Part shown: piece after piece, positions 50,030 through 51,122 of the stretch
Position numbering within the stretch: position 1 is the stretch's first letter
How the letters are laid out: every line of letters begins with the position of its first letter
NCBI GenBank assembly: GCA_041660005.1
Contig: JBAZXG010000002.1
Coordinates: 24,356-88,355 of the forward strand
Length of the DNA: 64,000 bases
Direction of reading: 5' to 3'
Source: Patescibacteria group bacterium
GTDB taxonomy: Bacteria; Patescibacteriota; Patescibacteriia; GWA2-46-9
Program-made: the position numbers and the translations under genes
Notes under the pieces: model-generated
What the model was told of the DNA's origin: nothing
Databases searched by the model: none
What the model saw: only the letters and a program-made list of their open reading frames with translations

Positions 50030-51122
50030 CTACTGTACTACCTGTTTACGCTCAAAATTATTCCTAATGAAGCATGACTCCTCATAGCCGTTACAATGCT
50101 GTACCAATCCGAGATACGACTGCACGACTTGCTGAAACCTTACGTCATCGGTAGCCTCAATCTTAACGTCCAAATCGGCTTCAAAGAGCCGCTTGAACAT
50201 CCGCCGGCGCGACGTTGTTCTCAAAACTCGGTGATGCGGTAATATAACATACCCGAGAAAATCGATTCCTTGGCTCAGTTTTCTGATAGAGACTTTCCTC
50301 GGATGTAGTTCCAAGAGTAACTTTTCTTGAAGAAATGTCCTTACTCTTCCTAAAACCTCCTCTAGATACTCTGGATCTCTATGAACAAAAACAAAGTCAT
50401 CTGCATAGCGAAAATAATGTCGAATGTGCAAAGTATGTTTTACAAACTGATCAAGCTCGTTTAAGTATATGTTGGCAAAAATTTGTGAAGTGAGATTACC
50501 GATAGGAAGCCCCGTGCTAAGAAGCTGGTCGGAACGCCGAGAGAGAGAGAGAGAGAGAGAGAGAGAGGGGGGGGGGGGATTTTGTCCTCACCGTAAAGCT
50601 ACATAGTACCTCTCGGAGTAACCAAAGAAGGCTGGTATCGCTTATTTTGTTCTCAATCAATGCTAAAAGTTTCTGGTGATTCACGCTGTCAAAGAATTTT
50701 CTGATATCGCACTTCAGGACATAGCAGGGCTGTGTGTAATTACGGCTCACTTTTCTCAGAGCACGTGAAAGATTCTCTACCGCAAGGTGTGTCCCCCGTT
50801 CTGGCCGAGAGGCATACGAATGGAAAATAAATGTCGGTTCAAATATACCCGACAACCCTCGCCATACGGCATGGTGCACCAAGCGATCACGCACACTCGC
50901 TTTGCTAATCACGCGGTGTTTCGGGTCATGAATATGAAAGATGTGATATGAACCATGGCGATACCGTTGTGCTCGTAACTCCTCATGCAGGGTAAAGATA
51001 TTGTCTTCTAGATAGCGTTCAAAATGCTGCACGTCAGGCTTACCACGTTTCCCGCACTTAAACTCATCCCAGCATTGAAACAGATGTTCGAGGCTTATTA
51101 TTTCACTATAACTTTTATGCAT
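50030..51122 (-). pseudogene. DGR reverse transcriptase; reading frame interrupted by a (GA)14G12 tract at 50539..50578 (N-part 50517..51122/51167, C-part 50030..50431)
   Basis: N-part has RVISKASVRDRLVHHAV and YVLKCDIRKFFDSVNH RT motifs; out-of-frame continuation encodes GLPIGNLTSQIFANIYLNELD (DGR RT hallmark) then YADDFVFV and LELHPRKVSIRKLSQGIDFLGYVI; frames differ by 1 nt. Confidence 0.8.
50539..50578. repeat. simple sequence tract (GA)14 followed by G12 inside the RT gene
   Basis: seen directly; length 40 nt is not a multiple of 3 and separates two in-motif RT segments. Confidence 0.9.

Follow-up and report, generated by a model that had tools for sequence, protein, structure and literature searches.

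A simple-sequence tract splitting the reverse transcriptase gene of a Patescibacteria diversity-generating retroelement as a putative contingency switch of targeted hypermutation

Bacterial contingency loci, in which a gene is switched by simple repeats, are known from the poly-G tracts of Campylobacter and Helicobacter and from the tetranucleotide repeats of Haemophilus and Neisseria, and the genes concerned are mostly those of surface antigens, restriction-modification enzymes and glycosyltransferases of host-adapted pathogens. In the phasevarions, the phase-variable genes are the mod/hsdS DNA methyltransferases, with epigenetic reprogramming of expression as the outcome, and switchable general mutators arise by tandem-repeat changes in mutL or by the excision of the SpyCIM1 element from mutL. 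The simple-sequence-repeat phase variation in bacterial contingency loci is said to have been treated by Moxon, Bayliss and Hood in 2006 (as cited in PMC3521204). The stretch of DNA considered here (64 kb of a chromosome of a Patescibacteria group bacterium, the whole of which is called the window and supplies the coordinates below) encodes a diversity-generating retroelement (DGR), the reverse transcriptase (RT) gene of which is split by an uninterrupted dinucleotide and homopolymer tract, and this tract is regarded by us as probably a slipped-strand contingency locus gating the DGR mutagenesis.

Among the DGRs, the frameshifted or truncated RTs were read as decay or sequencing error in the DiGReF survey (PMC3521204). 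The locus of the window is similar to those cases in having a broken RT open reading frame (ORF) beside an intact template repeat (TR) and variable repeat (VR), whereas neither a repeat tract nor conservation of the site nor a series of alleles was described for them (PMC3521204). Hypermutable tracts with reversible frameshifts are presented as bet-hedging in genes of the coliphages T2/T4, hence beyond the classical pathogens (bioRxiv 10.1101/2025.10.21.683753), and the present tract differs from those loci in being situated in a DGR RT. The literature searched, the coverage of which was incomplete, describes no DGR RT that is controlled by a repeat or subject to phase variation, and this is an absence of evidence only.

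The tract is (GA)14G12 at 50539-50578, i.e., 40 nucleotides (nt) without interruption, which on the coding (minus) strand of the RT gene read C12(TC)14. It is the sole dinucleotide repeat of at least 5 units and the sole homopolymer longer than 8 nt in the 64-kb window, with 0.00 occurrences of the (GA)10 pattern expected from 100 dinucleotide-preserving shuffles. The N-terminal frame of the RT continues across the tract as ..TKSPPPLSLSLSLSLSAFRPAS up to a stop at 50517-50519, giving a product of 201 amino acids (aa) as assembled, and the catalytic part follows in another frame (Table 1). By computation, the removal of 1 nt yields an ORF of 363 aa, the addition of one GA unit (+2 nt) yields 364 aa, and the deletion of all 40 nt of the tract yields 350 aa. 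The tract is a perfect intragenic repeat of a length sufficient for slippage, and changes of its length put the gene in or out of frame, as computed for the window by these repairs and as seen in all three frames among the relatives. The preliminary description of this DNA, made from its letters, had already placed the (GA)14G12 tract at these positions, with the motifs 1-4 upstream and GLPIGN/YADD downstream in the +1 frame, and had expected a change of -1 or +2 nt to restore an RT of about 360 aa; all of this was borne out by re-reading of the sequence, by the repeat scan of the window, by frame translation and by the computed repairs. In the downstream RT frame, no usable start codon was found 5' of GLPIGN, and the possibility of a split RT working as two polypeptides was ruled out on this ground.

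The retroelement around the tract has the composition of a DGR, namely an RT with the RVT_1 fold, a GxxxSQ-type motif and YADD, an adenine-biased TR/VR pair at the 3' end of a target gene, and Avd, and judging from its gene content it is complete apart from the tract-split RT. Of the mismatches in the TR/VR core, 13/14 fall on TR adenines, which is the historical A-to-N signature of adenine mutagenesis; the sole exception is a TR T read as G in the VR, beside an A-to-G change (GATAAG versus GAGGAG). Like the canonical DGR of the Bordetella phage BPP-1 (bRT-Avd; 8ub7), the locus combines an RT bearing GxxxSQ and YADD, a bAvd protein and an adenine-specific TR/VR at the target C-terminus. Unlike it, the window has a repeat at the site where bRT has 4 residues and no repeat, and in the window's clade avd is antisense to the RT.

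Apart from the frame break at the tract, no other lesion is seen in the RT of the window. The joined protein matches Pfam RVT_1 (E=2.7e-25), keeps 70/70 invariant columns of an alignment with 22 homologs, and has the Bordetella DGR bRT (8ub7, E=4.6e-47) as its closest solved relative. In comparison with the ortholog from Candidatus Uhrbacteria, the proportions of nonsynonymous and synonymous changes (pN/pS) were 0.139/0.766 upstream of the tract and 0.233/0.802 downstream, values that point to purifying selection on both RT halves. The low pN downstream of the tract indicates that the C-terminal half was translated through most of the time since the split of the lineages, and the long perfect repeat persists at the same site in the window and in the ortholog despite saturated synonymous sites. 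The decayed RT, which was one of the alternatives named in the preliminary description, is therefore unlikely for the window, given the intact motifs and the purifying selection on both halves.

The loop between the motifs 4 and 5, into which the tract peptide falls, measures from 3 to 34 aa in the best 120 homolog representatives, and in the alignment with bRT (8ub7), whose loop has 4 residues, the query residues 173 and 203 correspond to the bRT residues 172 and 177. The AlphaFold2 model of the G11-repaired RT has a mean predicted local distance difference test score (pLDDT) of 83.6, with the residues 181-198, spanning the tract-encoded 182-194, as the only internal segment with pLDDT <50. 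The homolog alignment, the match to the bRT structure and this model together support the placement of the tract peptide, predicted earlier from the letters, in a surface loop between the motif-4 helix and GLPIGN that would be tolerant of inserts.

For the window's own species, one public read set was recovered, the Logan run SRR18595301, in the independent assembly of which two contigs are 100% identical to the window and both end inside the tract: L033 (window 44043-50565) ends in the GA run with 27 nt of GA reached, and L032 (window 50574-56983) ends in the G run with 5 C reached. Since the two contigs run into the tract from unique flanks on either side, the tract is present in the raw data, and that assembler was unable to cross it; a contig break of this kind is to be expected if the tract is heterogeneous in length or if it was sequenced poorly. 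That the tract exists is secure, and its assembled length could be wrong by 1 nt (G12 versus G11). Accordingly, the assembly error considered in the preliminary description is excluded so far as the presence of the tract is concerned and stays conceivable for its exact length. No second allele was recovered for this species. The DNA pattern composed of the tract end and the downstream flank, searched in metagenome, genome and viral collections, returned contigs of the Uhrbacteria ortholog only, with the window's own locus not recovered, and the exact look-up of the window Avd and the look-up of the homolog P0018 gave no match.

The best homolog of the repaired RT is the protein P0001 of Candidatus Uhrbacteria (71% aa identity), which encodes ..SSTLSLSLSLSLNSDNF..GLPIGN at identical alignment columns, the DNA there being (CT)14, in frame. 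At seven ortholog loci (L003 and L007 being one and the same public contig), the tracts are (CT)14, 14, 16, 21, 14, 19 and 16, and the loci are otherwise identical across 1 kb upstream and 2.6 kb downstream (3.6 kb) except for a 195-bp insertion in uvrC, which defines two sublineages, the tract length being variable within both. Ten proteins identical outside the tract make up the 90% cluster of P0001, and they include two in-frame lengths and both shifted frames. A recent foreign insertion of 40 nt in the window, suggested by the frame-restoring effect of the exact 40-nt deletion, was rejected as the main explanation in view of the tract found in the same position of the ortholog. The insertion in uvrC is carried by L002, L003, L004 and L007 and is missing from L001, L005 and L006; it lies about 1.25 kb downstream of the RT tract (about 2330-2525 of L002), keeps the frame (UvrC of 520 versus 455 aa), contains many inverted repeats, shows 2 internal single-nucleotide polymorphisms between the carriers, and is possibly a miniature mobile element, or else a stretch that the protein tolerates.

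In the Uhrbacteria locus L001, the homolog of the target gene occupies 8008-8970 and avd about 8967-9330 (minus strand) of that locus. The target ends with ..SLCLRPRGALRFGYRANLADANDNYSGGVSFVGLCLL, the first half of which is VR-like, and the second half is Asn-rich, TR-like and runs into the sequence found downstream of the TR. Neither a TR/VR pair in this locus nor a second copy of the repeat within 20 kb was detected, and the Uhrbacteria DGR has probably collapsed to a single repeat by VR-TR fusion and become inactive. As no TR/VR pair was found there, the state of the tract cannot be linked to the DGR activity in Uhrbacteria, and what the allele series of this lineage indicates is the hypermutability of the tract, not its function.

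The comparison of orthologous DGR RTs proposed in the preliminary description was run, and simple repeats were met at this site in the closest ortholog and in several distant clusters. Among the best 120 homolog representatives, 16 encode at least three RE units, at least three LS units or GGGG in the loop between the motifs 4 and 5; outside this loop, there are trivial runs in only two. On the coding strand, these tracts are (GA)16G in L008, (GA)9G, (GA)8G and (GA)7G in the P0049 cluster, G9 in L030, G12 in L031, and G9 in ten loci of the P0002 cluster, where it is out of frame and the in-frame members imply G8. In each of the clusters P0018, P0025, P0049 and P0002, full-length members occur together with others that are truncated or split precisely where the tract lies. 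Among the P0049 sequences, the (GA)9 allele is in frame (tail ..RERELKENF..), and the alleles (GA)7 (..RES and stop), (GA)8 (..RERVKGKFF..) and (GA)10 (..RERERES and stop) are out of frame. The (GA)8 length was found in at least 14 contigs and (GA)7 in at least 17; these contigs derive from several projects and from different assemblers, and such repetition makes a random assembly error not credible. The out-of-frame contigs number about 52 versus about 10 in-frame ones among the listed members of the P0049 cluster, and in the P0002 cluster G9 occurs in at least 12 contigs versus 3 in frame.

Over about 250 kb of the window and the related loci, dinucleotide repeats of at least 6 units are confined to the RT loop, and no interruption was seen in any tract. 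The polymorphism of tract length between near-identical genomes was seen in the ortholog and in three other clusters, and the window's species has one assembled allele. In viral contigs, no GA/TC tract was found within 30 nt of a GLPIGN-coding motif at that stringency. The coding-strand tract is pyrimidine-rich in the window and the ortholog and purine-rich in all other clusters (L008-L031, L034-L043); the plus-strand (GA)14G12 of the window resembles two motifs that are used separately elsewhere, but it stands on the opposite strand relative to the gene.

The rewriting of VRs may be followed directly in two of the clusters. Within the P0049 cluster, all contigs share one TR, and at least 7 VR alleles are present among 16 contigs, with 28/30 of the variable VR positions at TR adenines and 2/30 at TR cytosines. 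Over 2.9 kb compared in 11 contigs of this cluster, 46 columns vary, of which 30 belong to the VR, 4 to the tract and 12 to scattered sites outside both; one VR allele is paired with both (GA)8 and (GA)7, and nearly all distinct VRs adjoin out-of-frame RT alleles. In the P0002 cluster, five loci compared over 3019 nt differ at 23 positions only, which all lie in the VR, and each of the five has G9, out of frame. Since the VR differences of the P0002 loci are unaccompanied by nearby neutral substitutions, the VR rewriting must have been very recent, though the consensus RT is out of frame. Two explanations fit these patterns, a switch, with the RT lately in frame and since slipped, or an attenuator, with a leaky out-of-frame RT.

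According to the mechanism proposed, slipped-strand mispairing in DNA replication or repair would alter the GA/TC run in steps of 2 nt and the G/C run in steps of 1 nt, and the RT gene would pass heritably and reversibly among three states, of which one is in frame and two are out of frame. The in-frame gene would give a complete RT of about 363 aa containing a disordered Pro/Ser-Leu linker, and in this ON state the TR would be copied to cDNA with errors at adenines and the target VR rewritten. Out of frame, only the 201-aa fragment lacking the catalytic YADD palm would be made, the mutagenesis would stop and the current VR would be frozen. The allele of the window would be OFF as assembled, a single step from C12 to C11 or from (TC)14 to (TC)15 being sufficient to turn it ON. 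The slippage, the reversibility within a lineage, the inactivity of the RT in the OFF state and the adaptive role (bet-hedging or lock-in) are what we infer from the allele patterns and from the established contingency loci of other bacteria. The hypermutable ON/OFF behaviour anticipated in the preliminary description gains support from the repeats of the relatives, the length differences between otherwise identical contigs, the occurrence of all three frames and the VR rewriting. A broader proposition, that a clade of DGRs in the Patescibacteria (Candidate Phyla Radiation, CPR) evolved and keeps under selection an RT contingency repeat, i.e., (GA)n, Gn or the complement, always in the motif 4-5 loop, with hypermutation gated stochastically (most cells being OFF, with the present receptor variant frozen, and a minority going ON, rewriting the VR and going OFF again), seems to us evenly poised between being right and being wrong.

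Judged by its sequence and by the length polymorphism of its relatives, the tract behaves as the classical contingency loci do, and the novelty would lie in the gated gene, a DGR RT. As in the known loci, there is a perfect tract within an ORF, near-identical genomes of the relatives differ in tract length across three frames with invariant flanks, and slippage is the presumed cause; unlike them, the gene that would be gated is a hypermutation RT in Patescibacteria, and the tract of the window is a composite of a dinucleotide run and a homopolymer. With the phasevarions, it would share a repeat in the ORF of an enzyme with downstream effects at the population level, and not in the effector itself, "a switch on a regulator", but the effect would be to permit or arrest the sequence diversification of a target protein instead of an epigenetic change of expression. 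In comparison with the mutL switches, the mutagenic capacity would likewise be switched reversibly by genetic means, the lineage alternating between diversifying and stable, whereas the tract would act on one variable region of about 126 nt through a retroelement and not genome-wide through mismatch repair.

The VR rewriting beside out-of-frame alleles raises the explanation that the tract is an expression attenuator, in which RNA polymerase slippage on the G/C or GA run, or ribosomal +1 frameshifting on the CCC-C proline codons, would give little full-length RT and a permanently low DGR activity. The CCC-C sequence is a classic +1 slippery or stalling context, and homopolymer runs of at least 9 are known sites of transcriptional slippage. 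The allele of the window needs exactly +1, and its tract starts with about four consecutive CCC codons, which makes leaky expression mechanistically plausible there; moreover, VRs were rewritten between otherwise identical genomes all having an out-of-frame RT, and out-of-frame alleles dominate the assemblies of the P0049 and P0002 clusters. However, the length variation is seen directly at the DNA level, in-frame alleles included, the (GA)7 and (GA)8 alleles need different shifts without a known slippery site, and the stop directly after the tract in (GA)7 and (GA)10 confines any recoding to the tract itself. A programmed recoding site has a conserved slippery sequence of fixed length and a fixed shift, as a rule together with a stimulatory element, and the length and the shift vary here between alleles and lineages. 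The attenuator as the whole explanation is considered unlikely, and it may coexist with the switching at the DNA level. Another explanation denies the tract any regulatory role and takes it for a microsatellite, neutral or slightly deleterious, that would expand in this loop only because any peptide is tolerated there; the frameshifts, the one in the window included, would be recurrent losses of function on the way to a pseudogene. This explanation is in keeping with a loop that is very variable in length and sequence, with the Uhrbacteria ortholog, which keeps a varying tract though its separate TR is apparently lost, and with the treatment of frameshifted DGR RTs as inactivated elements in surveys (PMC3521204). 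Against such neutrality speak the long perfect tracts of three kinds, which recur in several lineages at this single site and are absent from the rest of the proteins and loci, the retention of the tract despite saturated synonymous sites, with both RT halves under purifying selection, and the lack of stabilising interruptions in any tract; the window RT has no other lesion, and the continued diversification of VRs where out-of-frame alleles dominate is hard to square with the death of the gene. We hold this explanation to be improbable. A sequencing or assembly artefact, the tract being spurious or its length wrong and the gene truly in frame, is suggested by the error-proneness of G12 and (GA)14 on all sequencing platforms, by the failure of the independent SRR18595301 assembly to cross the tract, which leaves the assembled length uncertain, and by the fact that an error of 1 nt is enough to change the frame. 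Nevertheless, both independent contigs enter the tract from unique sequence, the ortholog and many relatives from other projects carry tracts at exactly this site, and given out-of-frame lengths recur in more than 10 contigs each from different assemblers, so that the version concerning the presence of the tract is already refuted and the artefact as a whole is most improbable.

Several observations also weigh against the contingency switch, which nonetheless is preferred. The tract length of the window is known from its assembly, with G12 versus G11 uncertain, and no second genome of the window's species with another tract length was found by the pattern, homolog and look-up searches. The DGR of the closest ortholog appears defunct, and the drift of the tract there may be neutral. 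Given the strand difference of the tracts, their common descent is not established, and an independent origin of tracts at one site would strengthen the case for selection. The comparison of truncated members covers the repeat-bearing clusters, and the VR diversification on out-of-frame alleles would be equally explained by leaky expression of a nominally OFF gene.

Table 1. Features of the DGR and of its surroundings in the window
Feature	Positions	Strand	Remarks
(GA)14 dinucleotide repeat, (TC)14 on the RT coding strand	50539..50566	.	Length steps of 2 nt
G12 homopolymer, C12 on the coding strand	50567..50578	.	Length steps of 1 nt; Pro run encoded
RT, N-terminal part (fingers, motifs 1-4)	50579..51122	-	ATG at 51122; matches bRT (8ub7) residues 10-172
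RT, C-terminal part (GLPIGNLTSQ, YADD, thumb, stop codon)	50030..50538	-	+1 frame relative to the N-terminal part
bAvd accessory protein	51117..51485	+	Pfam bAvd PF22296, E=6.2e-19
Template repeat (TR)	51538..51663	-	126-nt direct repeat with the VR, 88% identity
Variable repeat (VR)	52078..52203	-	3' end of the target gene, ending at its stop codon
DGR target gene, 300 aa	52081..52983	-	No Pfam match; VR at the C-terminus; homolog of 320 aa encoded upstream of the Uhrbacteria RT
Helix-turn-helix (HTH) regulator and Peptidase_M78 pair	within ~44400-58000		Island
ParB-N6/N4 methylase	45329-46591		Island
Second methylase	46509-47333		Island
613-aa protein	47975-49816		Island; no Pfam match
SHOCT/DUF4429 protein	53403-53867		Island
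Large serine recombinase	55086-56540		Island
AbiEii-like AAA ATPase	56574-58019		Island

The window is part of a cellular chromosome, as it encodes GyrA, NusA and the H+-pyrophosphatase, and the DGR is located within what looks like an integrated island at about 44400-58000 (Table 1). The gene avd is opposite in strand to the RT gene, and their start codons overlap in the palindrome ATGCAT (51117-51122), so that no intergenic room is left for promoters, and a TR-bearing transcript directed toward the RT would cross avd in antisense. The divergent avd/RT layout was present in all related loci examined (L001, L009-L031, L034-L042). The repeat search of the window gave nothing convincing as to inverted repeats around the oppositely oriented avd, and the possibility of an invertible avd segment was dropped, the divergent layout being the norm of the clade. 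Elsewhere in the window, a protein of 963 aa (13155-16046, plus strand) has four Lamin Tail Domains and a PKD domain, and it is probably a large surface protein unrelated to the DGR.

The control of DGR timing and the protection of useful variants are poorly understood, and a heritable, reversible switching of the RT frame would explain both in simple terms for a large and uncultured group of host-dependent bacteria, among which DGRs are particularly frequent. A built-in stochastic shut-off of this kind may also be of use as a design idea for engineered DGR diversifiers. If the contingency switch is true, an increase in the frequency of ON alleles is to be expected in metagenomic time series, either ahead of the VR turnover or along with it, and the split or "pseudogenised" RTs in such genomes would be the OFF alleles of live elements, with a corresponding change of annotation practice. 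The tract would then be a second-order evolvability switch and would provide a concrete mechanism for the alternating phases of diversification and selection inferred for DGRs in nature.

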